Translations under genes and position numbers: made by a program
The notes under the pieces: generated by a model
The model's input: only the letters and a program-made list of their open reading frames with translations
Told to the model about the DNA's origin: nothing
The model's database searches: none
Assembly (NCBI GenBank): GCA_963819815.1
Contig: CAWFXL010000001.1
Span: forward strand, 320,001-384,000
Length of the DNA: 64,000 nt
From: an uncultured bacterium
Lineage (GTDB): Bacteria > Babelota > Babeliae > Babelales > Babelaceae
Direction of reading: 5' to 3'
Shown here: positions 2,065 through 55,474 of the stretch, piece after piece
Numbering within the stretch: position 1 is the first letter of the stretch
Layout: every line of letters begins with the position of its first letter

Positions 2065-2305
2065 AGAGAACCTCTTAATCGATAGGAATCATCTTAATGA
2101 GCATATACGAAGCGCACGAGTAGGTGCAAGGATTTTGTGTGAGGCAATCTGGTGCTTACTATAAAAATAATGAAAAGTGTATAGATGCTTTAATTCATGT
2201 CCAAGCACAACCCTTATTCAATTCTCCAAGAGAGTATTGTGTTGCTGGCAAAAAAAAGCTATCATGTGTCCAAACTATCAAAAAATGACAGTTAAGGCAC
2301 ATGGC

Positions 2306-5007: not shown

Positions 5008-5079
5008 GGTTTCTCCAAGCTCGGAAGATTTTTTTTGCTCTAAGTGTACTTGATACAAGGCTGAGCTCAAGTATTTTTC

Positions 5080-6490: not shown

Positions 6491-6712
6491 CGTCTTCTTT
6501 CTGCCGCATGGTGTCTTCTGCTAGGATATCCCAAAGACACAAGCAATGACAATAGTTTATGGCTTATGCCTAGCGACTGAGTTACCCAAGGCCGATGATC
6601 TTAAGCTTTCAGGTGATAGTCTACCCTCCGAGTTAGATCCATTGCAATTTCGTTGGTAAGTATGGTAAAGATACATAGACGAATATACACACAAAAAGAA
6701 GTCAGGAAGACG

Positions 6713-9022: not shown

Positions 9023-9739
9023 GGTTTATTTCCTTATGTTACGTTGTTATTATTATTCTTACTATACCATAGACCGGCCATTGTGTCAATTTTATCATAT
9101 TATAAATCTATTTTCTTTCATATCTGAAACATTTGCGGCCTTCATATCTCAGTGTACTAGCACTGATGCTCCTCGACAAAAGGGCCTATGAAATCGATAT
9201 AAACTGAAGAATCCCTGCACCACCGCCACATTCTTTTGGTGGTATTCGAGGCTAGGACGTATTTTGGCTATTCTCGGCAAGATAGAGCCCAAGAAGGTGA
9301 AACGAAGCCCACAGAGCCTCTTTTTGCAAGAAAGAGCTTGTTATATTTGAAAAGCAGCGATCAAAGCCGGAGAAGGTAGCTATAGAGCAATAACCTTGAA
9401 GCGGAAAAAAATTATCAATTGACAATTTTGTAAAAAGCGATATACTATAATCTCACATCATTGATGTAGACCTACCCCCTAAAATAGACCGCTATATAGG
9501 GAAAAATCAGACAAAAATAATTCTCGTGGGGTTTTTAACGGGATCGACTCTCTTTCTTCGACTGAGGTGGTACAACAAGTTGTACAGGAATATTTACAGC
9601 GGGCCAAACCGGGCAATACACCTCTAAAATTAAATCACCGAGCAAGGTAGCTTTCCAAGAAAAGTAGGCCATTGCGCTGTACATGCTCAGGTATAAGAAA
9701 AAAATAGTTTTTAACACTATACGATCTCAAGGAACTATT

Positions 9740-17303: not shown

Positions 17304-17349
17304 GTAAATTCCTGGCTAGAAGCGATACATATAAACAATGGAGCAAGCG

Positions 17350-29854: not shown

Positions 29855-30001
29855 GCGTAATCAATGTTGTGCACTCGATACCATCATCTCTACGTCATTA
29901 TGCCCTCCAAAAAAGAATATACAGCAGTTTGCCAACTTTGTATTTTGCTGATATGGTACAATAATTGCTATCATTCAGATATTTTAGAAAGGAAGAATGC
30001 T

Positions 30002-39506: not shown

Positions 39507-39911
39507 ATGAATACCAATTGTTTAAGCCCCAAAAGCTTTTTTTCAAAAAAAATGTGTCTCAGCATTCTTGCATCATTATTTGTTCAAAGTTACCTATCTG
39601 CGGCAACTATTCACGTCGACAATAAGTTGGCTGATCAAAATGTCATGATCAACCTCTATGCTGCCGATAATGCTACGTATTCAAAAACGATCAAACCAGG
39701 AGCGAGCGAATTCTTTAATACAGGTTTCTCACCTATCGCAAATCTTGAATGGACGATTAATGGTGTACGATGGACTGGTAACTCCTTAACGGTTAAAGCT
39801 CTAGAGACAGAAGGGCGTCTTATCATAGAAAAAGATGGTAAGTACTCGTTCAAACCGTGCCTATTCTGTAACGAAGTAACCGGTCAAGCAATCAAGATGA
39901 CCCGCAATTGA
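39507..39911 (+). CDS. Hypothetical small exported beta-rich protein
   Basis: AGGAG RBS, signal-like segment, downstream terminator. Confidence 0.7.
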   Translation: MNTNCLSPKSFFSKKMCLSILASLFVQSYLSAATIHVDNKLADQNVMINLYAADNATYSKTIKPGASEFFNTGFSPIANLEWTINGVRWTGNSLTVKALETEGRLIIEKDGKYSFKPCLFCNEVTGQAIKMTRN

Positions 39912-39947
39912 TCGTACAGATCATCGCAAGTGCACTAGTAAAGGTAT

Positions 39948-39987
39948 ACTATCCTCGCTCGCACTATTACGAGCGAGGATAGTTTTT
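39948..39987 (+). terminator. Rho-independent terminator
   Basis: ACTATCCTCGCTCG-loop-CGAGCGAGGATAGT followed by a T-run. Confidence 0.8.
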
Positions 39988-40079
39988 ATCTTATTTTCTA
40001 TTGAGAACAACCCATTGCCAATTCACATGTACGTTGGTGAGAGTAGCAAGCCGATTAAAGGATCTTCCAGACCAACTCT

Positions 40080-41162
40080 TTAATGAGCGGTAGACGTATA
40101 AGGCTTCTCGCAGCATGGCTTACATGGATTACAAGGTGGTACGCAGGGCTTGCAAATAACTGAGCGAATCTCATCAAGAAGTACCAAATCCGCTTGGAAA
40201 CACTCACGCGGCAAGGGAACAAGATTGAGACATCGTGCAAATTTTTGTCCCTCAGTAAGCACAAAGTAGATAAACTGGGCAAGATTGCACGCAATAAATT
40301 CAGAAGGTTGATTCGCGTAGACGATCAGGTATTCTTTAAAGGTCAGAGGATAGGCGCAAGGGATTTTAGGTTTTGTAACTGATTCGTCACACAATCCTTC
40401 TGCAGCTTTCCGTATGCTCTCAAGACATGGCTCAACAAATTGCGTGCAATCATAGATGCTTTCTATTTCAGCACTTCTTGCACAACATTCTTGAGCTTGA
40501 GCAAATGTCGTATAGCCAATCGTACCGTGAGTCGCCTTAACACGAGCAGCAACGTTGTTTGACGTACATTGATTTTCTCCTTTGCAGTTCCAAGGCCAAC
40601 AAAGAAGGTAAGCAAGAACGGTCGACAATTCACTCGCGGCGCACGGGTAAATGGCTTGTATGTAAGCATCACCTTTATAGCATATGTTATTGTATGGTCT
40701 ACGTAAGAGTGAAGCCCAGGATACACATTTCTTCCTAAAGAAAATATCGATTATGTCCTCTTCAGTAAGACGCAGGGTGAAATTGCGCGGGAACTTACAG
40801 CAGGGATCGTCAGTAGGAAGATTGTATACCACGGAGATTGCGGAGAATACGATTGGAATACTTAAGATGCAATCAGGTTGCCTATCCTGTTCTGAACGGG
40901 TGGCAGCAATATCTGATCCGGCAAAAGAAACTCTATAGGAATAGAGCGCTTCTCTTCCATCCTCAGAACCGAAACAACTCTTGTCAGATTTATAGGTAAA
41001 ACAGGGGCAAGGATAAATTTTGTTATAGCGTGCAATGTTTCTATCAATAAAAGGTTTAAGGTCAAATGAACCCGCCCCTTTAATCACGCTTAAAAACTGC
41101 TCATCACCAGCAGAGATATTTACCGACATACCGAAAATAAAAAATGTATAGAGTAACTTCAT
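40080..41162 (-). CDS. Divergent, very Cys-rich PstS-fold paralog (copy A)
   Basis: IKGAGS, FAGSD, IPIVFSAISVVYNLP, GTIGY, YPLT and FIYFVLTEGQ motifs. The RxDxSGT phosphate motif is degenerate (YPCAASELS). Cys-Pro tail. AGGAG RBS before ATG 41162. Confidence 0.8.
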   Translation of the reverse strand: MKLLYTFFIFGMSVNISAGDEQFLSVIKGAGSFDLKPFIDRNIARYNKIYPCPCFTYKSDKSCFGSEDGREALYSYRVSFAGSDIAATRSEQDRQPDCILSIPIVFSAISVVYNLPTDDPCCKFPRNFTLRLTEEDIIDIFFRKKCVSWASLLRRPYNNICYKGDAYIQAIYPCAASELSTVLAYLLCWPWNCKGENQCTSNNVAARVKATHGTIGYTTFAQAQECCARSAEIESIYDCTQFVEPCLESIRKAAEGLCDESVTKPKIPCAYPLTFKEYLIVYANQPSEFIACNLAQFIYFVLTEGQKFARCLNLVPLPRECFQADLVLLDEIRSVICKPCVPPCNPCKPCCEKPYTSTAH

Positions 41163-41343
41163 CACTTTCTCCTTTATGCAACTTAAAGACTTCCACATTC
41201 TAGCGCATTGAATTCTTAATTTTCAAGAGTTTTGAAAAAATATTTTTTTGAACGGGTAAATTTAGTCATAAGATGATGAAATATCTTCATAGCAGGGCTT
41301 TTTTATGCCTTTTTTTAGGGATATGTAGGTAGACTTAAAAAGG

Positions 41344-41370
41344 ACATGCCGAGCACGAAGCTCGGCATGT
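41344..41370 (-). terminator. Conserved terminator of the PstS-like family (1)
   Basis: ACATGCCGAGC-loop-GCTCGGCATGT, followed on the minus strand by ccttttt. Confidence 0.85.
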
Positions 41371-41402
41371 ATAAAGAACGAATTACTGAGTGCTAAAGTA
41401 CC

Positions 41403-42644
41403 TTAGTTGCCGCAGGTTGGGCAGGCCACTTCACAAAACTCAGGTGTTCTGCAAGGTATGCAAGGTTCAACGCATGGTTTGCAAATTGCAGGAGCAATGC
41501 TATCAAGCAAGATCTTACTTGCATTTAAGCAATCTTGGGTCATTGGAACGAATCCTCGAACACCAAGCTTTTGACCTTGGGTAAGAAGGAATACAATGAA
41601 CTGGGTAAGATTGCATGCAATCCATTCTATTGGCTGAGTACCAAAGAGATCAAAGTATTCAGCGGTAACGATAGGATATACATGTCCTGGATTTGAATGA
41701 GGAGCAAACTGACATATTAAGTCGTTACATACCTGGTTATTAATGACAGAATCGATCTGAGCGTTCTGTATCGCTTCATCATCAGTTGGTGAAATGAAAT
41801 CATTTTGGTGGAGGTTGTCTGTAGGTGGCATTAATCCACCTTGAAGCAAGAGTGCTGCTGGAACTGTTGGAAGGCTGATGAGATTGGCACCCGTTCCTAC
41901 ATAACCGATTGAACCACCTGTTTTTCGTATTTCTTCGATCATTTCTGCAGAGCTATACACCTTATCTGCGGTAGTAACATTAAGAAAATGTGGTTTTGGA
42001 TCACCAGCATTAACCGCTGTGCAGTTTCCACAGTCATTTAAATACGTTGTGAAAGCTTGGTTAGTACCAGATGCATCACCACGAGCAAATGGGGTTATAC
42101 GATTAGTACTTGAAAAGCTTACGTTACAGTTATAAGGCTTTGCAAGATAGGTTTCCCAAAGTGTGTCTGCATTAGTCGCACCCGTATAGATACGACAAAG
42201 ATCTTCACCTGTTAATCTCAATACACCAGCCGGAGTGAGGCATGTTGCAGGATTGTATGTTGACCCATTACTTTGAGTTACACTGGCTGGCAGGTTATAA
42301 ATAACCGATACTGAAGATAGAATGAAAGGAATTTGCAAGAAGCAATCTGGCAAATTACGCGTTTCAGTTGCAGGTGCTAGAAAGTCTGAAACTGAAGCAT
42401 CGAGCAATCCATTGTATACATCGTAGCGTCCTCGGAACGAATCTGAGAATTCTGCTGTTTGCTTATACACAAACGTTGGGCAGGGGAAAATAGTATTATA
42501 GAGCGAAATTGCAGCATCCATATAGTTTTCTGCAAGCGTTGATCCGCCAATGCTAATCGTGCTTCCGTAACTTGGAGCATATTTTGCTGAAACAGAAACG
42601 CTGGTTAATAATGCTAACGATAAGATAGCTAATTTTTTCATCAT
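41403..42644 (-). CDS. Cys-rich PstS-fold periplasmic binding protein paralog (copy B, intact)
   Basis: IGGST, ASVSD, ARGDASGTNQAFTTYL, GSIGYV and YPIV motifs. 18 Cys, of which 7 are in the last 26 aa. Confidence 0.88.
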   Translation of the reverse strand: MMKKLAILSLALLTSVSVSAKYAPSYGSTISIGGSTLAENYMDAAISLYNTIFPCPTFVYKQTAEFSDSFRGRYDVYNGLLDASVSDFLAPATETRNLPDCFLQIPFILSSVSVIYNLPASVTQSNGSTYNPATCLTPAGVLRLTGEDLCRIYTGATNADTLWETYLAKPYNCNVSFSSTNRITPFARGDASGTNQAFTTYLNDCGNCTAVNAGDPKPHFLNVTTADKVYSSAEMIEEIRKTGGSIGYVGTGANLISLPTVPAALLLQGGLMPPTDNLHQNDFISPTDDEAIQNAQIDSVINNQVCNDLICQFAPHSNPGHVYPIVTAEYFDLFGTQPIEWIACNLTQFIVFLLTQGQKLGVRGFVPMTQDCLNASKILLDSIAPAICKPCVEPCIPCRTPEFCEVACPTCGN

Positions 42645-42699
42645 GAGATAAATCCTTTTTTGTTGTTTGTTTGTTTGTTTATTAAAAATTTATTGCCAA

Positions 42700-42796
42700 A
42701 ACGGCACGTGCGGGTCCCCCAACCTGCGAAATGAATTGTTATACTGATAGTAACTCTTCGATATTCACTATAACCTAATATTTTTTATAAAATCAA
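42700..42796 (-). promoter_or_regulatory. Conserved promoter and 5' leader hairpin (copy B)
   Basis: TTGATT-N18-TATAGT, then GAAGAGTTA.. and hairpin GCAGGT-TGGGGG-ACCCGC. Confidence 0.7.
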
Positions 42797-43446
42797 TAAT
42801 TCGTAAAAGAATTTTTGTCATCAAATGTTTTAATCTATATTAATCAGTTTGATATTATAATAAGCGGTGTTACTTAGGTTGCGAGGGTAGATTGTGGTAA
42901 AAGATGATCAAACCAAGATATCTATGAATAGTGAGATAAGGGGAAGGGTCCTTTGATAATAGATGCGTGAAGAATAAGTGATTTTGATACCAGGAAATAG
43001 TTAATAGACTTAGTGAATATAATGATCGGGAATTATTAAGCGTAGGCATGTACAATCTGGATGATCTTTAAGATGGAACCACTAATCCCTAACTGTTTTG
43101 AAATAAAGCCTTAGATGTCTTGGACAAAAAGGCATACCTCATGAACAAAAATATGCCGAGTGGTCTGCATGATAAAAAATTACGGTGGCTGATACGTTTG
43201 AGAAAAGCCAGAATTAAGGATCGAGGGAGGGATAGTATTTGAGACATAGAAGACTGTATCGTATTTTCGTAACTGGGCAATTGATCTCGTGAAGAGGTCT
43301 GTAAATGAAGCTCATTTATCTAGAAATCTAAAGGCCATTCAGCTGAAAAAAGCGGATTGTTATGTTCCACTCTGATCTTTCACTCTATGAAATGCCTCAT
43401 GCCCGGCAAACGATCTGAAGAGATAATATCAATCTTAGAAATGTCC

Positions 43447-43505
43447 TTAGCATGTGCAGGTTGGACAAGTCTGAGGGGCTATCATAAGGTGTGCAGGGAT
43501 ATGTT
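43447..43505 (-). pseudogene. Tiny remnant of a PstS-like Cys-rich tail
   Basis: Encodes PCTPYDSP / QTCPTCTC-stop. Similar to 45983-46050 and to the tail of copy E. Confidence 0.5.
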
Positions 43506-43520
43506 GGTAGATGTAAAAGG

Positions 43521-43547
43521 ACATGCCGAGCATGAGGCTCGGCATGT
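43521..43547 (-). terminator. Conserved terminator of the PstS-like family (2)
   Basis: ACATGCCGAGC-atgag-GCTCGGCATGT, followed on the minus strand by cctttt. Confidence 0.85.
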
Positions 43548-43576
43548 AAAGAACGAATAATTGAGTACTAAAGTGC

Positions 43577-44825
43577 TTAGTTGCCGCAGGTTGGGCAGGC
43601 CACTTCACAGAACTCAGGTGTTCTGCAAGGTATGCAAGGTTCAACGCATGGTTTGCAAATTGCAGGAGCAATGCTATCAAGCATGATCTTACTTGCATTT
43701 AAGCAATCTTGGGTCATTGGAACGAATCCTCGAACACCAAGCTTTTGACCTTGGGTAAGAAGGAATACAATGAACTGGGTAAGATTGCATGAAATCCATT
43801 CTATTGGCTGAGTACCAAAGAGATCAAAGTATTCAGCGGTAACGATAGGATATACATGTCCTGGATTTGAAAGAGGAGCAAACTGACATATTAAGTCGTT
43901 ACAAACCTGGTTATTAATGACAGAATCGATCTGAGCGTTCTGTATCGCTTCATCATCAGTTGGTGAAATGAAATCATCTTGGTGGAGGTTGGTCTGTAGG
44001 TGGGAGCAATCCACCTTGAAGCAAGAGTGCTGCTGGAACGGTTGGAAGGTTAATGAGATTGGCACCCGTTCCTACATAACCTATTGAACCACCCGTTTTT
44101 CGAACCGCTTCAATCATTTCTGCAGAGCTATACACTAGATCTGAGGGGTTGGTACTAACATTAGGAAAAGTTGGTTTTGGATCACCAGCATTAACCGCTG
44201 TGCAGTTTCCACAGTCATTTAAATACGTTGTGAAAGCTTGGTTAGTACCAGATGCATCACCACGAGCAAATGGGGTTATACGATTAGTACTTGAAAAGCT
44301 TACGTTACAGTTATAAGGCTTTGCAAGATAGGTTTCCCAAAGTGTGTCTGCACTAGTCGCACCCGTATAGATACGACAAAGATCTTCACCTGTTAATCTC
44401 AATACACCAGCCGGAGTGAGGCATGTTGCAGGATTGTATGTTGTCCCATTACTTTGAGTTACACTGGCTGGCAGGTTATAAATAACCGATACTGAAGATA
44501 GAATGAAAGGAATTTGCAAGAAGCAATCTGGCAAATTACGAGTTTCACTTGCAGGTGCTAGAAAGTCTGCAACAGAAGCATCGAGTGATCCATTGTACAC
44601 GTCATAACGTCCTCGGAACGAATCTGAGAATTCTGCTGTTTGCTTATACACAAACGTTGGGCAGGGGAAAATAGTATTATAGAGCGAAATTGCAGCATCC
44701 ATGTAGTTTTCTGCAAGCGTCGAACCACCAACTCTAATGGTACTTCCAAAGGCTGGTCTGAATTGTGCTGAAACAGAAACGCAGGTGAGTAATGCTACCG
44801 ACAAGATAGCTAATTTTTTCATCAT
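43577..44825 (-). pseudogene. Cys-rich PstS-fold paralog (copy C), frameshifted at ~43991
   Basis: Near-identical to copy B. Plus strand reads gaggttGgtctgtagg versus gaggttgtctgtagg in copy B (one extra G). Joins ORFs 43974..44933 and 43577..44065. Confidence 0.85.
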
Positions 44826-44874
44826 AATAATCCTCTTTTGTTTTTTTGTATGTTTTTTGTATAGTTTATTAAAA

Positions 44875-44968
44875 TGGCACTTGCAGGTCCCCCAACCTTC
44901 GGTATAGCCGTTAAACTGATAGTAACTCTTCATTACTTACTATAATTAATTTTCTATTATGAAATCAA
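44875..44968 (-). promoter_or_regulatory. Conserved promoter and 5' leader hairpin (copy C)
   Basis: TTGATT-N18-TATAGT and hairpin GAAGGT-TGGGGG-ACCTGC. Confidence 0.7.
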
Positions 44969-45214
44969 TGATTTAAAATGAATAATATTTATAAATATTT
45001 GTATATAATGTGGCTCTTTTTTCTAGACTGTCATATCTGTTAGAAATGGGTGTCATTGTAATCGTTAATAACTCGTGCCAAACACACGTTTTAGTCAAAA
45101 AAATAACATCGTTCATACGGCACATCTGTTCGCTCACTATGAGGGAATGCCCTAAGGCATAGACTTTTATGATCCTTCTCATTTCAGCCGCTATACCTAA
45201 ACTACAGTGCTTAC

Positions 45215-45569
45215 CCTCTGCGCTGGGAAGGCCCCTAAATGTATGTGTGGGGATGAGAAGCACAAGATAGTATCTCGAGATCATCGAGGTGATATCTTCT
45301 AACAACTCTTGCATGTATCTCATTTGCTGATACTATCACATGTGAACTGTAGCGGTTTTTAATAATCAAAATAGTGCCAGAGCAGCCTCGCCTTTGTACT
45401 GAGTGATGTATCGGCGTAGAACCACTCATGATAGAGACTATAATGCTGCGAAAAATATCGAACGAGTTGGGGCATCAACTCTTGGGTTAGGCGATGTAAG
45501 ACCAACTTTGTTGGCTATCGCTGTCTGATCCCAGAATCCCCGGAATGTATTCCTGGACGAGTATGTCAA
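45215..45569 (+). mobile_element. Non-autonomous, internally deleted IS200/IS605 derivative (355 bp) related to the tnpB element
   Basis: Preceded by TTAC (45211-45214). 45215-45407 aligns to the left end of the 15920-17303 element. 45416-45569 aligns to the 3' end of tnpB plus the right end, finishing in TCAA. Confidence 0.9.
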
Positions 45570-45589
45570 TAATAAGCATCTCAGCATCG
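45416..45589 (+). ncRNA. Putative TnpB omegaRNA (scaffold ~45416-45569 plus flanking guide TAATAAGCATCTCAGC...)
   Basis: TnpB omegaRNAs are known to overlap the tnpB 3' end and right end, with the guide taken from the 3' flank. Exactly this part is retained here. Expression is not demonstrated. Confidence 0.55.
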
Positions 45590-45982
45590 GGGGGAACTTT
45601 CAAGATCCATTTTCCAAATTCGATACCAAGAAAAACCTCAATGCATCCTGCTAATCAAGATTACCACGTAGGCATCAGACTAGGAGCATCTGTTTTGTAA
45701 GCAACTGTAAGATCCTCTTGCCTTCCAAATGAGCTTTCCCTTTGTGTCGAAGCCTTCGATCTGGCCAGCTTTATATTTGCGGCACTGGCTAACCTTCATA
45801 GTCCATCATCAGAAGGGATTCCCTCTATCTTTTGGAGAGAGTGTGTCACCAGAGACTTGAAGCCATCTTGTAAAAAAGTAATGAAATGCTGCTGATAAAC
45901 TCTTTATAAAGGAGAAAATAATAGTGAACAAATTGCATGACGAGCAAGGGGCCCAACATGAGAGCCTATCAATGAAATGATC

Positions 45983-46295
45983 TTAGCATGCACAGGTGGA
46001 CAAGTCTGCATACGCCATGCAGGGCTATCGCAAGGTGTGCAAGGAGGAATGTAAGCATTGCAAAGTACTCCAGAGATACTATCTAGGAAGATCTTGCTAG
46101 AGCATAAACCTCATTGGATCAATGAAACTAGCCAGAGACACCACCGTTGATTTTGGATAAGACTGAGCAAAATAAAATTGTAAGATGAAAGCGATCCTTT
46201 CGATGGGCTAAGTTCTGCGATAACGACAGGATATATTAATGCCTTAGCAGGGTGATTCTGACAAGACAAGTTTGTAGAGAGAATTGCCTGATAGA
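45983..46295 (-). pseudogene. Decayed 3' remnant of another PstS-like paralog
   Basis: Minus-strand translations STNLSCQNHPAKALIYPVVIAE and SSKIFLDSISGVLCNAYIPPCTPCDSPA match TNLICQP..YPLVIAE and LDSISAVICEPCIEPCIPCDSPA of copy E. Confidence 0.75.
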
Positions 46296-46591
46296 TTAAG
46301 TTTGTTCAATTTAGATTAACCCAGTTAATCTAAATTCAAAACCCGTGAGGTCATACGTGTCGGTACCATCTTCCACAGTGGCTGGTAAGTAATGAGAAAG
46401 GATCTTTTAAGCTCGGTTACCCAGGTAACTTTGACCTTACATCTAGTTTCTGTACGTCAGACCCAAAGTTTTGACCTTCAGATCTCACCTCGCAATGGGA
46501 AACTCTTGCCTACAGCTTACGATTCTGGTTGCTACGAGCCCGCTGGGGACTTGAACCTCTTTGAAATTTTACCAAACCCAGCGCACAGGAA

Positions 46592-46618
46592 ACATGCCGA
46601 GCACGGGGCTCGGCATGT
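46592..46618 (-). terminator. Conserved terminator of the PstS-like family (3)
   Basis: ACATGCCGAGC-acggg-GCTCGGCATGT. Weak U-tract. Confidence 0.75.
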
Positions 46619-46662
46619 AAAAAGTTACTATCTAGTATACTAGCTGAGGAGAGTACTTCCCC

Positions 46663-47931
46663 TTAGTTGTTGCAGGTTGGGCAAGCCTCAGGGCACGTTG
46701 CAACGGTTGCGCAAGGTATGCATGGTTCAATGCAAGGCTGGCAAATTGCAGACCCGATATCATCAAGGAGAGCCTTACTCGCTGCTATACAGTCTTGCGA
46801 CATTGGGAAGTATCCTGGAACCTGACTTGCAAACTTTTGCCCTTGGGTAAGAAGGAACAAAATAAACTGTTTAACGTTGCATGCAATAAAGTCTGTTGGC
46901 TGTGTACCAAAGACTTCAAAAAGCTCAACAGTAACAATCGGATATGCACCTGGAACGCAGGTTAAGCTCGTGCAGTTTCCACTGCTTACTGCAGCCTGTA
47001 CGTTCGCCGCAGTTGGTGCTAGGAAGTCAGCATTCACAGTTGAGCTGCCGCCTGCTTCGAGTATCAAAGCAACAGGGATGTTAGGATTATTTGATACCGC
47101 AATATCACCTAACCCAGCATAGCCAAGAGTGCCAGGATTAGCTGCTACATAGTTAACCAAGGCTATACCACCTGATACGCGAACTACTAAGCTTGTAAAT
47201 TGGCTATCGGTGAATAATGGCGGCGTTCCAGCTGGAAGTGGATTGTTAGGCGTTATTCCTGGGCAATTTCCACAGTTAGCTAGATAGGTTGTGAATACTT
47301 GCGAAGTACCACTGCTATCTAGTCGAGCAACTGGAATTAATGGATAGTTGTGAGTGTTAACCGGAGCAATACACCCCGTAGGTTGTCCACCTAAGTTATA
47401 GGGCCTTGAAAGAAAATCTTCCCAGAATTCGGTTGTCGGATTTGTATAGATGCTACAAAGATCGCTACCTGTTAATCTCAATCCACCATTTGCAGCCAAA
47501 TCAGCAGCGAGAGCGGCAGTCGTAGTATAAATCTTAGCTACGCCACCCTTACATACCGTAAACATCCCTCCCGCAAAAGTGATATTTGGTAGATGATAAG
47601 GGATAGCAACTGCAGAAACTAGGAATGGAATTTCCAGGAGACAATCTGGCAAAAACTGTGTTTCAGTTGCAGGCGCTGGAGCATCTGACACTGCACCAGT
47701 AAGTGTTCCGTTATAAACACCAGCACGCCCAGCACCTGAGTCTGAGGTTGCATAGGTGAATGTTGGACACGGGTAAATTGAGTTTTAAAGACTAACAACC
47801 GCAGTCATGTAAGGTGCTGCGAGTGAAGATCCACCAAGTTTAATGTTAGCACCAAAACCAGGTGCAAATTTTGCCGAAGCAGAAACGCATGTGAGTAATG
47901 CTATCGACAAGATAGCTAATTTTTTCATCAT
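46663..47931 (-). pseudogene. Cys-rich PstS-fold paralog (copy D) with an in-frame TAA at 47785-47787
   Basis: MMKKLAILSIALLTC...IKLGGSSLAAPYMTAVVSL*NSIYPCPTF; the stop replaces a conserved Tyr. Continues in frame into ORF 46663..47691 (SDSGAG, ARLDSSGTSQVFTTYL). This is the most canonical PstS motif set in the array. Confidence 0.85.
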
Positions 47932-47977
47932 AATAATCCTCTTTTATTTTTGTTTTGTTTATATTTTGCTTACTGAG

Positions 47978-48067
47978 CAATTGTAGGTTCCCCTGCCTAC
48001 ATGTAGCTGTTATACTGCTAATAACTCTTCACTATTAACTATAAATAATTTTCTATTATAAAATCAA
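47978..48067 (-). promoter_or_regulatory. Conserved promoter and 5' leader hairpin (copy D)
   Basis: TTGATT-N18-TATAGT and hairpin GTAGG-CAGGGGAA-CCTAC. Confidence 0.7.
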
Positions 48068-48623
48068 GAGATAAAAAAGAATATTTACCGCATGATTTTG
48101 AAAACAAATCTTTCCATTGGCAAGCTTCTTGAAAGCAATAAGCTTTGGAAGCAGTTCCCAATTTCATGATGCAACAAGCTCCCGTTTGGCGCGATCACAT
48201 GCTTATGCTCTACATCGAGTTACACAAAGACACGCCCCCTCCTATTTCCAGGCTACTACGCCGCCTCATAGCCTCTACATGACCAACTTGCTCTCTCCTA
48301 GTCATATAGATCTCCCGAGCATAGCGACCAGAATAATCTCGTCGCTTTACTACTTTTTTATATCGATACGGCCTGGTATATATAGGCATATGGCTGCACA
48401 GCCGTGCTCATGTATAAAAGTGTAATAAAGCAGCAATCAGTTTTTGAAATCTTTTCAGAAAATTATGTGCGAGTAACTAAAAAAGTCCTGTCATCTCTTA
48501 TCATGCAGGCAGGGCGATGAGGATCTTCTTACTACTAAGCGATTGCACTTTCATGAGCAGTATGATAGTTTTCAAGCTACCTAATAAGTAGGTATTAAGG
48601 AACGTTACCAGGGAGATTTCTTC

Positions 48624-49190
48624 ATGAAAAAACTCATGCTTCTTACATCGTTAGCAATTTCAAGTTACTCGTACGGAATTCCAGATAAGATACTAAAGGA
48701 AGTTGCAACTGCTCATTCTCTGAGCGAGCTGAGTCAAGAAGCGCAAGAGGCAATTACTTCCAAAGAGCTTCCCAGGGAAGCTCTCAGTACTGAGCTCAGG
48801 AAAGAAGTAGAGGCTCTCGACTTTTACTGGGAGATACTCCTTGCTATCATTACCCAAAACACGGATGCTATCGCCCATCAAGTAGCCCAAGGTATTGATC
48901 TTAACGCAAAGACCAATTTTAACTATACCTTTCTCACCTTTGCAGTCGATAATAATGTTGTTGAAAGTGTGCGCGAATTGATTAAACAAGGTGCTCAGGT
49001 CTCAATTCCCGATGAGTTCGGGAGAAGCCCACTTCACTATGCAATTATTCGTAGAAACAAATCTATGGTAACACTGCTTCTTGAAGCTGGGGCCGATCCT
49101 AATCTGCCTGATCACAAAGGTAATACACCACTAATGTGCACATCAAACGAAGGCATTATTGCCTTACTACGTCTTTTTGGGGCACACTAG
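48624..49190 (+). CDS. Ankyrin-repeat protein with signal peptide
   Basis: GRSPLHYAI and GADPNLPDHKGNTPL motifs. GGGAG RBS. Confidence 0.9.
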   Translation: MKKLMLLTSLAISSYSYGIPDKILKEVATAHSLSELSQEAQEAITSKELPREALSTELRKEVEALDFYWEILLAIITQNTDAIAHQVAQGIDLNAKTNFNYTFLTFAVDNNVVESVRELIKQGAQVSIPDEFGRSPLHYAIIRRNKSMVTLLLEAGADPNLPDHKGNTPLMCTSNEGIIALLRLFGAH

Positions 49191-49288
49191 AGAGGAAATT
49201 CGGCTACAACAAACTTACTGACTGCACCAGCATAGGAAAGTTGAGCTTTTCAGAGCGTAACAACCTTAAATGATAGAGAAAGGAATCT

Positions 49289-49897
49289 ATGGATCACCAA
49301 CTTATAGCAATACTCAGCATACCCTGTCTTGGATATCTCAGTTATTGCATCGCTTTGTACAGCGAAATATATCGCCTAAAAATGTATGGAAAGCATGTTG
49401 TCACAGAAGAAGAAGACCTTGATCCTATTCTGAGGGCACCGATTACCACCAGATCCTGGTTCAATCTTTCACAAGCAGCAACATGGCTCATACTTGGAGG
49501 ATTACTCCTTGGCGGCTACGCCTACGGAGAATATCTAATCAGGTTTAACCCTATAGAAAAATATCTCGATAGGTTTATCACCCTAAACTGGATTCTTGAG
49601 TATAGTATTGGACTTTTACTCACGCAAACGTTACTGATCCTCGGCTATGCACTAGAATTGTTGCTTATTTTTCGATTTGCAGATCGGAATCGGAGCTCAC
49701 TCATAGGGGAAGTACGTATGTCAAGCGATATAGTCAATCACAAAAGACTCTATCATTTCATTCCATTTAGCATAATTTTGCTAGCTGTGTATGCCTATAA
49801 TCCAAGTGCATTTACTTTGGGATGCGCAATCGCGCCCTTTATCTCTATGTTATCGATGTGGCAACGTATTAGGCGCGCAAGGAAAACAGCTTCTTAA
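49289..49897 (+). CDS. Hypothetical membrane protein
   Basis: About 5 hydrophobic segments. AGGA RBS. Confidence 0.7.
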   Translation: MDHQLIAILSIPCLGYLSYCIALYSEIYRLKMYGKHVVTEEEDLDPILRAPITTRSWFNLSQAATWLILGGLLLGGYAYGEYLIRFNPIEKYLDRFITLNWILEYSIGLLLTQTLLILGYALELLLIFRFADRNRSSLIGEVRMSSDIVNHKRLYHFIPFSIILLAVYAYNPSAFTLGCAIAPFISMLSMWQRIRRARKTAS

Positions 49898-49983
49898 TGT
49901 GCTGCTTTGCCAGAGAGTACCTAGGTGAACTTATCTTCCCAGGAGTTCTTTGTGACGAAGAGCCCTAGCCCTTAGAGAATGTC

Positions 49984-52077
49984 TCAGTGTTTGTGGTACC
50001 CATTTTTTTTCAACTGAGGTGGATGGCAGTCTTTAAGATGTTTTGTACGATCCGCCTCCACACACGTAGCATCACAGTAGCGAGCTTCTTTACAGTTCTG
50101 ACAGATAAGCGAAGCTGATCCCTCATGACAATACCTGCAGACTGTTGGCAGATCCAGCATTTCAAGCTGCCTAATTTTAGGCGTGAGAAAGAGCGGAATA
50201 AGAGAAAGAACTGCCTGGTGAGGAAGTTCAGCACCAAGCTCCTTTAAATAACTAACGACGAGATCATGGCCATATGAATGGGCGCATATGAGAGGTGTTA
50301 TGCCATCTTTATTAGGAGTTGCTGGTTCAGCTCCATGTCTCACAAGAGTTTTAACGACCTTCAGACGACCAGTTTGGCACGCAAGGAGTAAGGGAGTACT
50401 ATTGCGTGGTCCGCACTCATCGACGGGCGCGCCATTCCGTATAAGAAGATCGACAAGCCGACTATGGCCACACCAACTTGCAAAGTGAAGAGCCGTAAAG
50501 CCTTCAATGGTTTTTGCTGAGCGGTCTGCACCTCGTGCTAACAGAAGTTCCACACAATCAAAGGCTCCAGATTGACATGCTACTAAGAGGGCTGTTTGAA
50601 GACGATCATTAACACAGTTGACCTGTGCTCCATGATCAAGCAAAAGCCTCGCAAGCTCTTTCCTATTATTAAGGCAACAGATCATAAGAGCAGTCATTCC
50701 CTTGTATCCTTTTGTATCTACCTGTGCTTGTGCCTCTAAGAGAGCTGTCACTAATTCTTCAGTACCTTGGTTGCATGCAATAGAGAGCGCCGTACCATGC
50801 TCTGCACTTACCGCCTCAAGATCTGCCCCCAGCTCTTTTAACAAGGGAACAAGACGACGTCTCTCTTCAAAGCACGCATAGTGCAGAGCCGTTACCCCAT
50901 GTTTGTTAGCATACGTAACGACACCTCTTTTTTTGGCAGTCAGCCATTCAATTAGTGCTGGGTCTTCGAATGAACATGCGGCCATGAGGGGCGTGATCCC
51001 ATCTGTATCTTCTGACTGTACATCGGCACCGGCAGCTATAAGGGCTCCGATTATGCGCCGCAACCCTTTTTGGCACGCAGCGATAAGGCCAGTTGTGAGG
51101 TCCTTTTGACGATCTTTCTTCAGAGATAGAAGCCGTATAACGAGATGATAATGACCGTTCTCAACAGCATATATGAGGGGGGTTTTTCCTGCGCTATCAG
51201 CCTGTGTTAACTGTGCGCCATGCCTCAGAAACAGATCAACAAGCTCAGCGTCTCCCTCCTCACATGCTTGATGCAGCGCTGTTCTTCCCTTATTATCAGG
51301 AATATCGCACGGCACGCCTTTATCAATAAGAAAGACCACCATGCCATAGCGGCCCCGTTCTTTATGCATCATTGCCTGCAGTAGCAGGTTTCTGTTATTT
51401 TCATCAGATTCAGTAAAAGCAACTCCATGCTCATGAAGACGTTGTGCAATAGAAGTCCTAAAATAGATACAGGCCAAGGACAAGGCATTAGTGCCTCTAT
51501 CAGTTTTAAGGGAAGGATCCGCTCCATGAGTCAGCAAAAAGTCGACCCACCAATACTTACCTCTGATCACAGAAAACGCTAAGGGAGTCATATTTCCCGC
51601 CATCTGCAGATTAACATTACATGCGTGGTTTTTTACCAAGAGTGCAGCAATTTCACGCTTATCAAGCTGACAGGCAATGATGAGTGGACTTGCACCTCCA
51701 TCATCCTGAGCATTAACATTAGCTTCGCATACCAAAAGAAACCTAACAACGCGAATATTACCTGCAGCAACGGCACTATGAAGAGCGGTGCTTCCGTCTG
51801 CAGCTCGTGCATTAACGTCTGCGCCATGTTTTAAGAGTTGGCGAACTTTAGTTGAAAATCCATTTTCAACGGCAATGATGAGGGGAGTGCGTCCGGAAGT
51901 ATCTCGAGCATTAGGGGAAGCTCCTCGATGTACAAGGTCTGCTATAGTGTCTTTGTCATCGGCCATACATGAGTTAAGGAGCAGTCGATCTTCTTTCGTA
52001 AGGTTGATAGATGCCCCATAGAGCATACCTGGTAGTATACTGATACTCAACAAAGCGATGGTGATTATCTTGTTCAT
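49984..52077 (-). CDS. Ankyrin-repeat protein with C-terminal MYND zinc finger
   Basis: About 17 ankyrin repeats. CRYC..CQNCKEARYCDATC..H..C at the C-terminus. Signal peptide. Confidence 0.92.
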   Translation of the reverse strand: MNKIITIALLSISILPGMLYGASINLTKEDRLLLNSCMADDKDTIADLVHRGASPNARDTSGRTPLIIAVENGFSTKVRQLLKHGADVNARAADGSTALHSAVAAGNIRVVRFLLVCEANVNAQDDGGASPLIIACQLDKREIAALLVKNHACNVNLQMAGNMTPLAFSVIRGKYWWVDFLLTHGADPSLKTDRGTNALSLACIYFRTSIAQRLHEHGVAFTESDENNRNLLLQAMMHKERGRYGMVVFLIDKGVPCDIPDNKGRTALHQACEEGDAELVDLFLRHGAQLTQADSAGKTPLIYAVENGHYHLVIRLLSLKKDRQKDLTTGLIAACQKGLRRIIGALIAAGADVQSEDTDGITPLMAACSFEDPALIEWLTAKKRGVVTYANKHGVTALHYACFEERRRLVPLLKELGADLEAVSAEHGTALSIACNQGTEELVTALLEAQAQVDTKGYKGMTALMICCLNNRKELARLLLDHGAQVNCVNDRLQTALLVACQSGAFDCVELLLARGADRSAKTIEGFTALHFASWCGHSRLVDLLIRNGAPVDECGPRNSTPLLLACQTGRLKVVKTLVRHGAEPATPNKDGITPLICAHSYGHDLVVSYLKELGAELPHQAVLSLIPLFLTPKIRQLEMLDLPTVCRYCHEGSASLICQNCKEARYCDATCVEADRTKHLKDCHPPQLKKNGYHKH

Positions 52078-52301
52078 GCTTGCCCTTACAAAGTGTACTT
52101 ATTTTTTCTTAATGATAGTGGCTGCTAGTAGTATAGCCCAGTTTTATTTCATGTCCCATGCTTTTTTTAGCGACCTTCAAGAACTTTTTTACAAAATTGT
52201 GCACCAAAAAGTAACATTCTCATCAAAATTCCAGGCCCGGCGCATTACAATAATTTGATAGCAGGTACTTCATTGGCCACACTTTCAGAAACCTTAAAAG
52301 G

Positions 52302-52327
52302 ACATGCCGAGCAGAGGCTCGGCATGT
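52302..52327 (-). terminator. Conserved terminator of the PstS-like family (4)
   Basis: ACATGCCGAGC-agag-GCTCGGCATGT, followed on the minus strand by cctttt. Confidence 0.85.
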
Positions 52328-52357
52328 GAAGAGCTAATATCTTAGTAATAAAGAATC

Positions 52358-53599
52358 TTAGCAGGTTGTGCAGGTTGGACAATTCGGAGTGCAAATTGCA
52401 GGGCTGTCGCAAGGTATGCAAGGTTCAATGCATGGCTCGCAAATGACAGCAGAGATGCTATCAAGAGATTCTCTACTTGCACTTAAGCAAGATTGGGTCA
52501 TTGGAACGAATCCTGGGACGCTAATCTTTTGACCGTCCATAAGTAGGAACTGAATAAACTGACTAAGATTGCACGCAAACCACTCTGTTACCTGTGGACC
52601 AAAGAGGTCTATATATTCAGCGATAACAAGAGGATAGGTTACAATAGCACCAGGAGTTACGTTAGGGTCTTCACTTGGCTGACAGATTAAGTTTGTGCAA
52701 TTTGGATTGTTAATTTGGGCAGCCTGGACGTTGGCGAAATTTGGCCCTACGAAGTGGTTGAGGTTGAAACCATCAGTTAAACCTCCTCCAAGCAAGAAAG
52801 CTGCTGGTAGGGGAAGATTTGGAAACGCAGCTAGGTTAGAACCTGTCCCTATATACCCAATTGAGTCACCCGCTGTTGCTACTCCAGAAATCATGTCTGC
52901 TGAGCTGGATGCCCCGGCGTCAAATTCAAAAAGAGTATTTGGGTTGTTTGTCGGGTTTGGATCGTTAGCAATTACCCTTGAACAATTTCCACAATCATGT
53001 AAATAGGTTGTGAATGCTTGGTTGGTACCGTTGGCATCCGTGCGGGCAAACCTAAACATTTGCGTATTGAGAAGCAAAGTACTGTCAGACACGTTATAGG
53101 GTTTTGCAAGATAGGTTTCCCAATATACAGTCACACCACTCGTATAGATCTGGCAAAGATCAGAAGCTGTTAACCTCAAAACACCATCAACTAGATCAGC
53201 TGGGAGGTGATACACAAAACCAGATGCATTTGTCACTGTAGGGGGTATATTGTAAATGATAGATACCGAAGAAAGAATAAAGGGAATTTGCAAGAAACAA
53301 TCGGGCAAATTCGCAGTTTCACTTGAAGGTGCTTTAAAGTCTGACACGGAAGCATCGAGCATGCCGTTGTACACATCCTTGCGCCCCACAAAATCATCTG
53401 TGAATAATGGCCCTTGTTTATATACAAACGTTGGGCAGGGGAAGATATCATTATAGAGAGCAATTACAGCATCCATATACGCGTTTGCGTTTGAAGAACC
53501 ACCAAGTTTAATGGTGCTTCCAAAACTAGGAGTGAATTTTGCAGAAGCAGAAACGCACGTTAATAATGCTACCGACAAGATAGCTAATTTTTTCATCAT
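52358..53599 (-). CDS. Cys-rich PstS-fold paralog (copy E, intact)
   Basis: IKLGGSS, ASVSD, ARTDANGTNQAFTTYL, SIGYI and YPLV motifs. Cys-Pro tail. Confidence 0.88.
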   Translation of the reverse strand: MMKKLAILSVALLTCVSASAKFTPSFGSTIKLGGSSNANAYMDAVIALYNDIFPCPTFVYKQGPLFTDDFVGRKDVYNGMLDASVSDFKAPSSETANLPDCFLQIPFILSSVSIIYNIPPTVTNASGFVYHLPADLVDGVLRLTASDLCQIYTSGVTVYWETYLAKPYNVSDSTLLLNTQMFRFARTDANGTNQAFTTYLHDCGNCSRVIANDPNPTNNPNTLFEFDAGASSSADMISGVATAGDSIGYIGTGSNLAAFPNLPLPAAFLLGGGLTDGFNLNHFVGPNFANVQAAQINNPNCTNLICQPSEDPNVTPGAIVTYPLVIAEYIDLFGPQVTEWFACNLSQFIQFLLMDGQKISVPGFVPMTQSCLSASRESLDSISAVICEPCIEPCIPCDSPAICTPNCPTCTTC

Positions 53600-53638
53600 A
53601 ATAATCCTTTTTTATTTTTGTGTTTTTTTACTATTTAC

Positions 53639-54871
53639 TTAGCTTACGCATGTTGGGCACGTTGGCACGCAAACTTTTGGGCTATCGCATGGTACGCAAG
53701 GTTCAATGCACGGCTTGCAAATTCCCGTAGAGATGCTATCAAGTTGTTCCTTGCTTGCACATAGACAGTCTTGAGTCATCGGAACGAATCCTGGAACGCC
53801 TAGCCTTTGCCCTTGGCTAAGCAGGAACAGGGTAAACTGTGAAAGATTGCATGCAATCCCTTTTGTTGACTGTGTACCAAAGAGGTCAATAAATTCAGCG
53901 GTAACAAGAGGATAGGTTACAATAGCACCAGGAGTTACTCTAGGGTCTGCACTTGGCTGACAGAGTAAGTTTGTACAATTCGGGTTACCGATTTGTGCAG
54001 CCTGTACGCTAGCATCATTTGGCCCTACGAAGTCTTCGAGGAAAGTACTAAGACCTGCTCCTTGCAAGAAAGCTGCTGGAAGATTTGGAAACGAAGCTAG
54101 GTTAGCCCCTGTTATTACATAACCAAGTGAGTGAGGCGTTATCGCTACGTCAGAAATCATGTCTGCCGAGCTGGATGCTCCGCCGGCAGATGTAAATAAA
54201 GTATTTGGGTTGTTTGCTGGGTTTGGATCGTTAGCAATTACACCTGAACAGTTTCCACAATCATGTAAATAGGTTGTGAATGCTTGGTTGATACCAGAGG
54301 CATCATTGCGAGCAAACTGAAATAACCGAGTTGACGATGATGACCCGCCCGTGAAACTATCGTTTAAGTTATAGGGTCTTGCAAGATAGGTTTCCCATGT
54401 ATTAAAAACATTCGTATAGATCTCACAAAGATCTGCAGCAGTTAACCTTAAAACACCATCAGTAAGATCAGCTGGGAGGTGATACACAAAACCAGATGCA
54501 TCCGTCACCGTAGCTGGTAAAGTATAGATAATAGACACTGAAGAAAGAATAAAGGGAATTTGCAAGAAACAATCGGGCAAATTCGCAGTTTCACTTGAAG
54601 GTGCTTTAAAGTCTGAAACGGAAGCGTTGAGCAATCCATTGTACACGGCCTGGCGCCCCACTATATCATCTGAGAATAGTGTCCCTTGCTTATACACAAA
54701 CGTTGGGCAGGGGAAAATTGAGTTATAGAGAGCAATAGCAGCATCCATGTATCCTTCTGCGGCCTCAGAACCACCAAGTTTAATGGTGCTTCCAAAACTA
54801 GGCGCAAATTTTGCTGAAGTTGAAACACACGTTAATAACGCTACCGACAAGATAGCTAATTTTTTCATCAT
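53639..54871 (-). CDS. Cys-rich PstS-fold paralog (copy F, intact; likely co-transcribed with E)
   Basis: ARNDASGINQAFTTYL motif. Only a 39-bp gap to copy E, with no terminator between them. Confidence 0.88.
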   Translation of the reverse strand: MMKKLAILSVALLTCVSTSAKFAPSFGSTIKLGGSEAAEGYMDAAIALYNSIFPCPTFVYKQGTLFSDDIVGRQAVYNGLLNASVSDFKAPSSETANLPDCFLQIPFILSSVSIIYTLPATVTDASGFVYHLPADLTDGVLRLTAADLCEIYTNVFNTWETYLARPYNLNDSFTGGSSSSTRLFQFARNDASGINQAFTTYLHDCGNCSGVIANDPNPANNPNTLFTSAGGASSSADMISDVAITPHSLGYVITGANLASFPNLPAAFLQGAGLSTFLEDFVGPNDASVQAAQIGNPNCTNLLCQPSADPRVTPGAIVTYPLVTAEFIDLFGTQSTKGIACNLSQFTLFLLSQGQRLGVPGFVPMTQDCLCASKEQLDSISTGICKPCIEPCVPCDSPKVCVPTCPTCVS

Positions 54872-54914
54872 AATAATCCTTTTTTGTTTTATTTTGTTCT
54901 TATAGTTTATGTAC

Positions 54915-55008
54915 AGGTAATTGCAGGTCCTCCCACCTACGTTCTAATTGTAATACAGATAATTACTCTTCATTATTTACTATAAACAATTAGCTAGTAT
55001 AAAATCAA
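54915..55008 (-). promoter_or_regulatory. Conserved promoter and 5' leader hairpin (copy F)
   Basis: TTGATT-N18-TATAGT and hairpin GTAGGT-GGGAGG-ACCTGC. Confidence 0.7.
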
Positions 55009-55474
55009 TAAACTATGTTGAATTTTTTTTAAATAAACACCCTAGTAGAAATTTTCAATAAGCAACTGACTTTGTTGCAATAAGCAGTGATAGAAAGAGT
55101 ACGGAGATAGTGGAAATACGTGGATGAGAGCATGAGCGAAGCACAATCTTGGAAAGCGCATACCTAAGATGGCTTTCACGAATGGCTCGTTCAGGCAAGA
55201 TCATAGAGTCCTATCGGGAGAGCACGAAGAGAAACTCGATAAAGTATCTTCTTAGACGCGTAATATCTGCTCAATGTTTTCTAATAGAATGCCTTTCAAT
55301 AATAACTTGCTAGCTAGTTTGCTCACTTATTCCTTATCTATAATAACTCACGAGGTTCCCTGGTCCAATTAAGGTCTGTTTCGGCACACCTGGTATCATG
55401 GTGTAAGAACATGCCGTCTCTCTTCCTCCAAAGAGATCTTAAAAAGAGTGGTCTCAAGCGATTACACCAAGAGA

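Follow-up and report, generated by a model that had tools for sequence, protein, structure and literature searches.

A cysteine-rich family of PstS-derived proteins without a Pst transporter in the Dependentiae

PstS, the binding protein of the PstSCAB phosphate transporter (PBP_like_2, TIGR00975), is the closest described counterpart of the proteins considered here, which are encoded by a tandem gene array at positions 40080-54871 of a 64,000-nucleotide (nt) stretch of DNA (the window; contig CAWFXL010000001.1, positions 320,001 to 384,000) from an uncultured member of the Dependentiae (Babeliales). The likeness to PstS lies in the two-lobe fold (Foldseek TMt up to 0.86), in a profile match over the full length, and in the phosphate-contact residues, which are present in array copies B, C and D and in most relatives. 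In contrast, the family falls far under the TIGR00975 cut-off, no pstC occurs in the genomes that make up the phylum set, cysteines amount to 4.4-7.5% of residues, and the proteins have extra loops and a Cys/Pro-rich tail, while some of their pockets have been lost. The array thus represents a lineage-restricted, PstS-derived family whose transporter is gone, as is the phosphate pocket of several members.

Other described systems are more distant. DING/HPBP proteins are also phosphate binders of the PstS superfamily without an adjacent transporter; DING proteins are extracellular, some are disulfide-bonded, and their N-terminal motif is DINGGG. However, they are farther from the array proteins than PstS is, both when a profile of the family is searched against Protein Data Bank (PDB) chains (E 1e-8, vs 7e-22 over the full length for PstS) and in structure (TMt 0.60-0.65 vs 0.78-0.86), they have no Cys-rich tail, and the mature N-terminus of the present family, KYAPSYGSTISIGGST, differs from DINGGG. 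PstS-1 of Mycobacterium tuberculosis is a lipoprotein of a working Pst system, Cys-poor and tail-less. This 38-kDa antigen is reported to be a surface adhesin as well (PMC11422057, PMC12298959) and so offers a precedent for the PstS fold in host contact, whereas for the present family adhesion is something that we can only infer. Finally, OmcA and OmcB of chlamydiae are comparable by analogy only, as exported Cys-rich proteins of an intracellular bacterium that occur alongside other Cys-rich envelope proteins; they belong to another phylum, and Pfam, NCBIfam and Foldseek give no kinship in sequence or fold. A preliminary description of the locus had leaned on this chlamydial parallel, which does not carry over directly, the organism being one of the Dependentiae and not of the Chlamydiae.

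Dependentiae are widespread, nearly uncultured parasites that live inside protist cells, and their envelope and host contact are scarcely characterised. The genome that carries the array (G000, hereafter the source genome; 1.64 Mb in 2 contigs, estimated completeness 88%) agrees with this lifestyle in its content, as ankyrin, WD40 and MYND proteins are abundant in it and TLC transporters are present. In the C-terminal half of RpoB it is 98, 79, 78, 73 and 72% identical to its nearest counterparts, which come from Dependentiae, Babeliales or TM6. Our search of the literature on Dependentiae found no paper on a PstS-like Cys-rich family of this kind, and what is excerpted from PMC6744442 has no bearing on it. 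Statements about the phylum refer to 261 genomes, which are all those of the order Babeliales, and at the same time all those of the phylum, in the genome collection searched.

The array and the fold of its products

Copy A, copy B and the N-terminal part of copy C match Pfam PF12849 (PBP_like_2, cut-off 27 bits) with 44.2, 39.0 and 41.5 bits, and copies D, E and F stay below that cut-off (21.1, 23.3 and 23.4 bits). Against the NCBIfam PstS equivalog TIGR00975, whose cut-off is 205 bits, the scores are 85.8 for A, 54.3 for B, 49.1 for D, 30.6 for E and 27.4 for F; two more distant copies in the same genome, belonging to what we call subfamily II, reach 109.8 and 89.1 bits, again under the cut-off. 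When copy B alone was searched against PDB sequences with phmmer, nothing was found. AlphaFold2 (AF2) models of copy B (pLDDT 79.8, pTM 0.79) and copy A (pLDDT 82.5) superpose on solved PstS as a two-lobe, class II binding-protein fold. With these models Foldseek returned binding proteins only, PstS structures being matched at E values of about 1e-19 to 1e-21 (for B, about 1e-19 and TMt 0.78-0.86; for A, TMt 0.75-0.80), and the best matches in both sequence and structure were 7dm1 and 1pc3, i.e. M. tuberculosis PstS-1. The PstS-like core that had been proposed for these proteins is thus recovered by profile and by structure prediction (E 7e-22; TMt 0.75-0.86). Each full-length copy also begins, as previously stated, with an export-type N-terminus when judged by eye, of the form MMKKLAILS.ALLT.VS.SA followed by K.

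The listing of open reading frames (ORFs) and a tblastn search of the window with copy B agree with the preliminary description on the make-up of the array, namely six full-length paralogs (four intact, one frameshifted, one with a nonsense codon) and two remnants, all on the minus strand:

40080-41198, minus strand: copy A, the A-type paralog; intact, longest ORF 372 amino acids (aa), likely start ATG at 41162
41403-42644, minus strand: copy B; intact, 413 aa, 18 Cys
43447-43475, minus strand: remnant 2, 29 nt left over from the end of a tail, stop codon included, most like copy E
43577-44825, minus strand: copy C; frameshifted, ORFs 43974-44933 and 43577-44065
45997-46254, minus strand: remnant 1, a decayed C-terminal third with an internal TGA and the tail relic CNAYIPPCTPCDSP
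46663-47931, minus strand: copy D; full length with one in-frame TAA at 47785-47787, an early-branching paralog
52358-53599, minus strand: copy E; intact, 413 aa, 18 Cys
53639-54871, minus strand: copy F; intact, 410 aa, 18 Cys

Copy C is a recent duplicate of B, with 91.6% DNA identity over 1506 nt including both flanks, and 95.8% over the 381 nt of 3' flank that lie within the duplication. Identity between E and F is 80.5%, and in older pairs DNA likeness can be recognised at the 5' and 3' ends only. The +1 frameshift of copy C, near 43992, is due to a single additional C (GACCAA; B reads GA-CAA at this place), and the stop codon of copy D is a change of TAT to TAA that hits the conserved Tyr of an LYN motif. 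Remnant 1 is 32% identical to residues 316-409 of B (tblastn, E 5e-7). Remnant 2, short as it is, aligns to the last 32 nt of E with a score of 39, while 200 shuffled sequences gave a mean of 18.5 (standard deviation 2.4) and a maximum of 26.

The same assembly splits rpoB (G000:C1:764731-768601) over two frames, which switch at a T5 run where a TGA also interrupts the reading; since the gene is essential, this is probably an indel made in assembly. It makes other frameshifts called in these contigs doubtful, so that the frameshift of copy C may itself be an assembly error and the pseudogene calls for C and D are uncertain. A 1306-aa ORF inside the window (25934-29854) was considered as RpoB and rejected, as it has no NCBIfam match and the true rpoB was located with TIGR02013; together with the adjacent ORF at 29864-33766 it forms a plus-strand pair of about 1300 aa each without an NCBIfam match at E 1e-10, and no relatives of the first of them were found in the genome collection.

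Between copies C and D the array contains mobile-element debris. A 200-nt segment of this gap (45211-45410) is an inverted repeat, with 88% identity, of 17108-17307, the flank of an IS200/IS605-type TnpB gene (15957-17099, minus strand), and between remnant 1 and copy D (46421-46499, minus strand) there is what looks like a fragment of group II intron domains D1-D4 (RF02001; 31.7 bits vs a gathering threshold of 32).

Cysteines, phosphate pocket and relatives

Cysteine content sets the family apart from ordinary PstS. Copies B, E and F have 18 Cys each and copy A has 28 (27 from its likely start), and the 4.4-7.5% Cys of the family compares with 0-1.1% in eight ordinary PstS-like proteins; the earlier counts (18 in B, about 27 in A) and the earlier statement that ordinary PstS is Cys-poor both hold. 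Relative to PstS there are about 45 extra loop residues. Copies B, C, D, E and F end in a Pro-rich tail with seven cysteines spaced C-x2-C-x3-C-x2-C-x5-C-x3-C-x2-C (CKPCVEPCIPCRTPEFCEVACPTCGN in copy B), and copy A ends in a related pattern (CKPCVPPCNPCKPCCEKPYTSTAH). Across subfamily I, which has 16 members, 16 Cys columns are conserved, nine in the core and seven in the tail, and each tail column is retained in 12-16 of the members, as one would expect from the conserved Cys tail that had been described; core and tail cysteines alike are conserved among relatives that share just 36-60% identity. A scan of 2003 ORFs of the source genome yielded 32 with a Cys-rich C-terminus, and those outside the family were mostly MYND zinc fingers, so that the tail is no general sorting tag in this genome. 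A search of the ESM Atlas with the tail returned no usable match. We also considered a CaaX-like prenylation box at the tail end and rejected it, since by eye the C-terminal ends are inconsistent.

The phosphate pocket presents a more varied picture. The contact residues, which we take to be T10, S38, D56, R135, D137, S139, G140 and T141 in E. coli numbering (in agreement with the profile alignment), are all kept in copies B, C and D, in relatives P0005-P0008 and P0016, and in all eight subfamily II proteins. Copy E has S38>D and S139>N, copy F has T10>E, S38>D and T141>I, other replacements, often acidic, occur in P0009, P0018, P0019 and P0023, and both A-type proteins (copy A and P0017) are without R135 and D137. 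The central motif accordingly reads RGDASGT in B and C, RLDSSGT in D, RTDANGT in E and RNDASGI in F and is absent in A, so that the drift noted in the preliminary description is confirmed, with the contacts now mapped on an alignment. In subfamily I as a whole, R-x-D-x-S-G-[TS] is intact in ten of the 16 members and altered in the other six. Set against the retention of the tail cysteines, this indicates that conservation of the tail and the disulfide framework is no weaker than that of phosphate binding. It had been proposed that the binding-protein fold was repurposed, and this may apply to A, E and F, where the pocket is altered or lost; it does not hold as a general statement, because B, C and D, ten of 16 members of subfamily I and all of subfamily II retain an intact pocket and the fold has therefore not simply been repurposed.

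The family is small. Copy B retrieved 13 proteins from 5.8 billion clusters, four of them from the window itself, and a profile search of 1.84 billion representatives gave some ten clusters of the family at E <1e-78, beyond which the matches fell off abruptly to ordinary PstS. With a broad profile, PstS-like genes of any kind were found in six of the 261 phylum genomes. The two subfamily II copies of the source genome lie 1.16 Mb away (G000:C1:1522878-1524209 and 1524376-1525725); they encode proteins of 443 and 449 aa with intact pockets and the same layout, ending in a different, Cys/Lys/Asp-rich tail (CPCCVDKTTGLNSCCTGGTCPS…KCKDKCR), and have orthologs in genomes G001, G007, G034 and G128. 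A tree of 40 rows, from which two fragments had been dropped, places subfamily I and the A-type (support 100/99) apart from subfamily II and its relatives. An old paralog, the A-type has in P0017 an ortholog from a second genome with the same pocket losses, and in both the present array and locus L027 an A-type gene occupies the 3' end. Cys-rich extensions, C- or N-terminal, are found on subfamily II and on several more distant relatives as well. Five of the relatives (P0032, P0034, P0036, P0038 and P0043) have no signal peptide and a Cys/Lys/Pro-rich N-terminus (e.g. MTKYNKKCCKKQKKCQKKCEKVCW); these are singletons on short metagenome contigs. No relatives were found in viral contigs or in JGI metagenome contigs, and the tandem-PstS giants P0020-P0025 were rejected as family members, being ordinary Cys-poor PstS fusions.

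Signals for expression, listed here for the copies in which they were seen, are shared within the array:

42767-42796, minus strand: promoter-like element of copy B
44939-44968, minus strand: promoter-like element of copy C
48038-48067, minus strand: promoter-like element of copy D
54979-55008, minus strand: promoter-like element of copy F
42645-42770, minus strand: conserved leader of copy B
44826-44942, minus strand: conserved leader of copy C
47932-48041, minus strand: conserved leader of copy D
54872-54982, minus strand: conserved leader of copy F
41344-41370, minus strand: terminator-like hairpin after copy B, an 11-bp stem followed by a T run
43521-43547, minus strand: near-identical hairpin after copy C

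The promoter-like elements are consensus matches of the type TTGATT-18-TATAGT, about 125 nt upstream of the genes, in a region where such sites number 32 in total against 34.7 in shuffled sequence, i.e. without excess. Downstream of each lie a conserved leader, about 100 nt long, and an A-rich region for ribosome binding. Rfam has no family at the leaders (39900-55500 searched), and only a weak consensus structure is predicted for them (-7.7 kcal/mol, 12 pairs). Copy E is probably co-transcribed with F, as its start lies 39 nt past the end of F. For copy A, a promoter-like site at 41226-41197 ends at the ATG of the longer ORF, which would favour the start at 41162.

These data bear on the possibility that the genes are mere leftovers, whether from a Pst system since lost or from a transfer, and are turning into pseudogenes that have no present function. 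One may point to the two interrupted copies out of six, to the two remnants amid mobile-element debris and to the degraded pockets of A, E and F. However, the ratio of nonsynonymous to synonymous substitution (dN/dS) between paralogs is 0.28-0.43, which indicates purifying selection on the genes, and four intact copies go with conserved promoter-like, leader and terminator elements. The cysteines of core and tail have been kept across 36-60% identity, an A-type ortholog persists in a second genome, and the frameshift at least may not be real. We thus regard decay without function as very improbable.

The missing transporter and an orphan importer

If these proteins served a Pst system, one would expect the genes of that system to be found. 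The window contains no pstC, pstA, pstB or phoU-like gene, as the preliminary description had said, and the absence extends much further: in the source genome the best match to pstC has 15 bits, with no match at the cut-off, the best match to pstB has 166.5 bits against a cut-off of 343.2, and pstC is found at the cut-off in none of the 261 genomes, the 22 weak matches being generic permeases. The PstS-like family is thus an orphan in a phylum without a Pst system. Phosphate transporters of the PHO4 (Pit) and Na/Pi cotransporter (NptA) families are also absent from the source genome, which has, in its three TLC nucleotide-transporter matches, another route to phosphate.

There is, however, one candidate partner inside the window:

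6653-8220, plus strand: orphan ATP-binding cassette (ABC) importer pair, permease and ATPase, with a permease most like ModB, CysT and WtpB

Adjoining this pair are a Ppx/GppA-like gene and a MIP channel gene (4009-5070, minus strand, and 5390-6058, plus strand). A type IV toxin-antitoxin pair, AbiEi/AbiEii, occupies 2177-3894 on the plus strand (Pfam E 2.5e-36 and 4.5e-38).

One may therefore consider that the copies with an intact pocket are working receptors for phosphate, or another oxyanion, which they hand to this importer. The permease scores 127.6 bits against Mo_ABC_porter and 116.5 bits against ModB, both below the respective cut-offs, and is paired with its ATPase; no binding-protein gene lies beside the pair at any of the seven loci examined, and the source genome encodes no SBP_bac_11 protein. 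Pockets are intact in B and in eight of eight subfamily II proteins, a Ppx/GppA-like gene is next to the importer, and three of the six genomes with the PstS-like family also possess the pair. On the other hand, the pair is a conserved two-gene unit in nine of the 261 Babeliales genomes, and in six of these nine neither PBP_like_2 nor SBP_bac_11 is present above the cut-off, so that the importer does not need the PstS-like family. The three genomes that hold both belong to a single genus, which means that the co-occurrences are not independent and that the link between importer and family is weak, and the permease is lacking from the other three family genomes, G007 (70% complete), G034 (91%) and G128 (93%). 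The importer also lies 32 kb from the array, and delivery of phosphate to it would leave the Cys-rich tail, the pocket losses of A, E and F, and the expansion of the family unexplained. We consider such a receptor function unlikely. At L027 an ABC-2 pair adjoins the array; it too was examined as a partner and was rejected, since it is of the exporter type and the match is weak.

Envelope context and possible roles

The source genome encodes a VKOR homologue (G000:C1:534646-535014, 141 aa, 87.6 bits), in which both the Cys pair of the loop and a CLIC motif are present. This is the sole disulfide-forming enzyme that was found, neither DsbB nor the DsbA-type families (PF01323, PF13462; DSBA, Thioredoxin_4) being detected in the genome. 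In a crude screen for exported proteins, the PstS-like family is among the most Cys-rich large proteins, and it has company:

G000:C1:68565-69053, 836637-837074, 1603552-1604637, 153113-154594, 1599015-1600925 and 141088-143031: other Cys-rich exported proteins, small ones and ones that resemble outer-membrane proteins (OMP-like)

The small ones are Cys/Pro-rich, with 20 Cys in 146 aa (13.7%) and 14 in 129 aa (10.9%), and the OMP-like ones have about 600 aa and Cys-rich N-termini, some ending in Phe; Pfam assigns no family to five of these proteins. The OMP-like family, whose members are Cys-rich in the source genome, occurs in 256 of the 261 genomes, usually in several copies. Together, the VKOR homologue, the other Cys-rich exported proteins and the OMP-like family make an oxidised, Cys-rich envelope plausible, and this is the strongest support for the idea, put forward when the locus was first described, of a disulfide-linked envelope system, although it is context rather than proof. 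The part of that idea which concerns a disulfide-rich envelope is therefore plausible; that the array proteins are linked to one another or to the envelope is not favoured by the cysteines themselves, since the 16 conserved ones, an even number, fit purely intramolecular disulfides equally well.

The full form of the idea would be a cross-linked coat, in which the PstS fold serves as a building block and the tails are joined by intermolecular disulfides into an envelope lattice, in analogy to OmcA, OmcB and MOMP. In its favour, the tail is the best-conserved feature of the family, mature E, F and A hold an odd number of cysteines, the pocket has been lost repeatedly while fold and tail stayed, and the genome supplies both a VKOR homologue and possible partners, in the small Cys/Pro-rich exported proteins and in the Cys-rich representatives of the widespread OMP-like family. 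However, a family present in six of 261 genomes is no general envelope component of the phylum, all 16 conserved cysteines could pair within one chain, and most members retain an intact pocket. Homology to OmcA or OmcB is absent, Pfam giving PBP_like_2 and otherwise weak matches at the level of the signal peptide only, and nothing in this analysis documents a developmental cycle for the organism, or the extracellular infectious stage supposed in the preliminary description. A homodimer prediction with two copies of B (score 0.00 vs a mark of 0.42) weighs neither way. On balance such a lattice seems unlikely.

Alternatively, the CxxC and CC elements of the tails could bind zinc, copper or another soft metal, making the proteins periplasmic metal buffers or chaperones. 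The repeated CxxC pairs, whose spacing may be metallothionein-like, the vicinal CC runs in subfamily II tails and the predicted disorder of the tails in models without a partner would all suit such a function. Yet Sec export would bring the tails to where a VKOR oxidase acts, so that disulfides are more likely than free thiolates, there are no adjacent metal-transport genes, and neither Pfam nor NCBIfam reports a metal-binding domain family. Metal handling by the tail is thus quite improbable.

The reading that we favour, tentatively and with somewhat less than even confidence, is that the family consists of exported, disulfide-locked binding proteins derived from PstS that no longer serve a Pst system, in which the tail is a knot or a cross-linking handle and which are diversifying as a host-facing family. 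Sec would carry the proteins to the periplasm, where the VKOR-type system would oxidise them, some four disulfides within domains would lock the two-lobe core, and the C-terminal Cys/Pro module would fold into a small disulfide knot. Such a knot may confer robustness outside the cytoplasm, or it may tie the protein, by disulfide exchange, to other Cys-rich envelope proteins. Where the pocket is intact, as in B, the two subfamily II proteins and perhaps C and D, the protein might still clamp phosphate or a phosphate-like group, whereas copies in which acidic or hydrophobic residues have replaced the contacts (A, E, F and several relatives) may by now bind something else or have a function that involves no binding.

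Host contact would fit the genes around the copies. Inside the array there are three further genes, one unassigned ORF and two ankyrin genes:

48624-49190: ankyrin gene with a signal-peptide-like N-terminus
49984-52077: ankyrin gene with a MYND finger and a signal-peptide-like N-terminus

Both in the window and at L027, ankyrin/MYND genes with signal peptides lie inside the array as well as around it. In the window as a whole, ankyrin-repeat genes lie at 9683-11137, 37665-39230, 48624-49190, 49984-52077 and 61703-63952, and the four that were read have signal-peptide-like N-termini; Pfam identifies a MYND zinc finger in those at 49984-52077 and 61703-63952, and several more Cys-rich, MYND-like C-termini occur elsewhere in the genome. 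Tandem expansion, variable loops and exported ankyrin neighbours, taken together, agree better with an adhesin-like binding family that faces the host than with a receptor for nutrients.

Several observations nevertheless weigh against this favoured reading of disulfide-locked, host-facing binding proteins. The adhesin component would rest only on the analogy to mycobacterial PstS-1 and on genomic neighbourhood, and the intact pockets of B and of all subfamily II fit plain phosphate binding equally well. Selection on whole genes is purifying and not diversifying, nonsynonymous and synonymous differences (pN and pS) being about equal in a few 30-codon windows only. As for the disulfides, no DsbA-type partner with PF01323 or PF13462 accompanies the VKOR homologue, even Cys counts are not overrepresented in the crude exported set (149 even, 219 odd), and the AF2 models give the tail a pLDDT <50 (residues 391-413 of B, and also in A), while the signal peptides were assigned by eye.

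A bolder version, which we think has a low though real chance of being correct, would see the PstS fold as having been recruited into a modular surface protein, whose tail bolts into a Cys-rich envelope while cleft and loops are reshaped, paralog by paralog, into host-binding sites. If this were true, a few Dependentiae lineages would have built a cross-linked adhesin coat from a transporter subunit, convergent with the chlamydial outer-membrane complex.

Whatever the role of the individual copies, a binding-protein fold here survives, multiplies and diversifies in a phylum without the matching transporter, and always with a Cys-rich appendage. This makes it a clear example of a transport receptor apparently released for a different role. 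The family is also a pointer to a Cys-rich envelope proteome in the phylum, in view of the small Cys/Pro proteins and Cys-rich OMP-like proteins of the source genome and its VKOR homologue.

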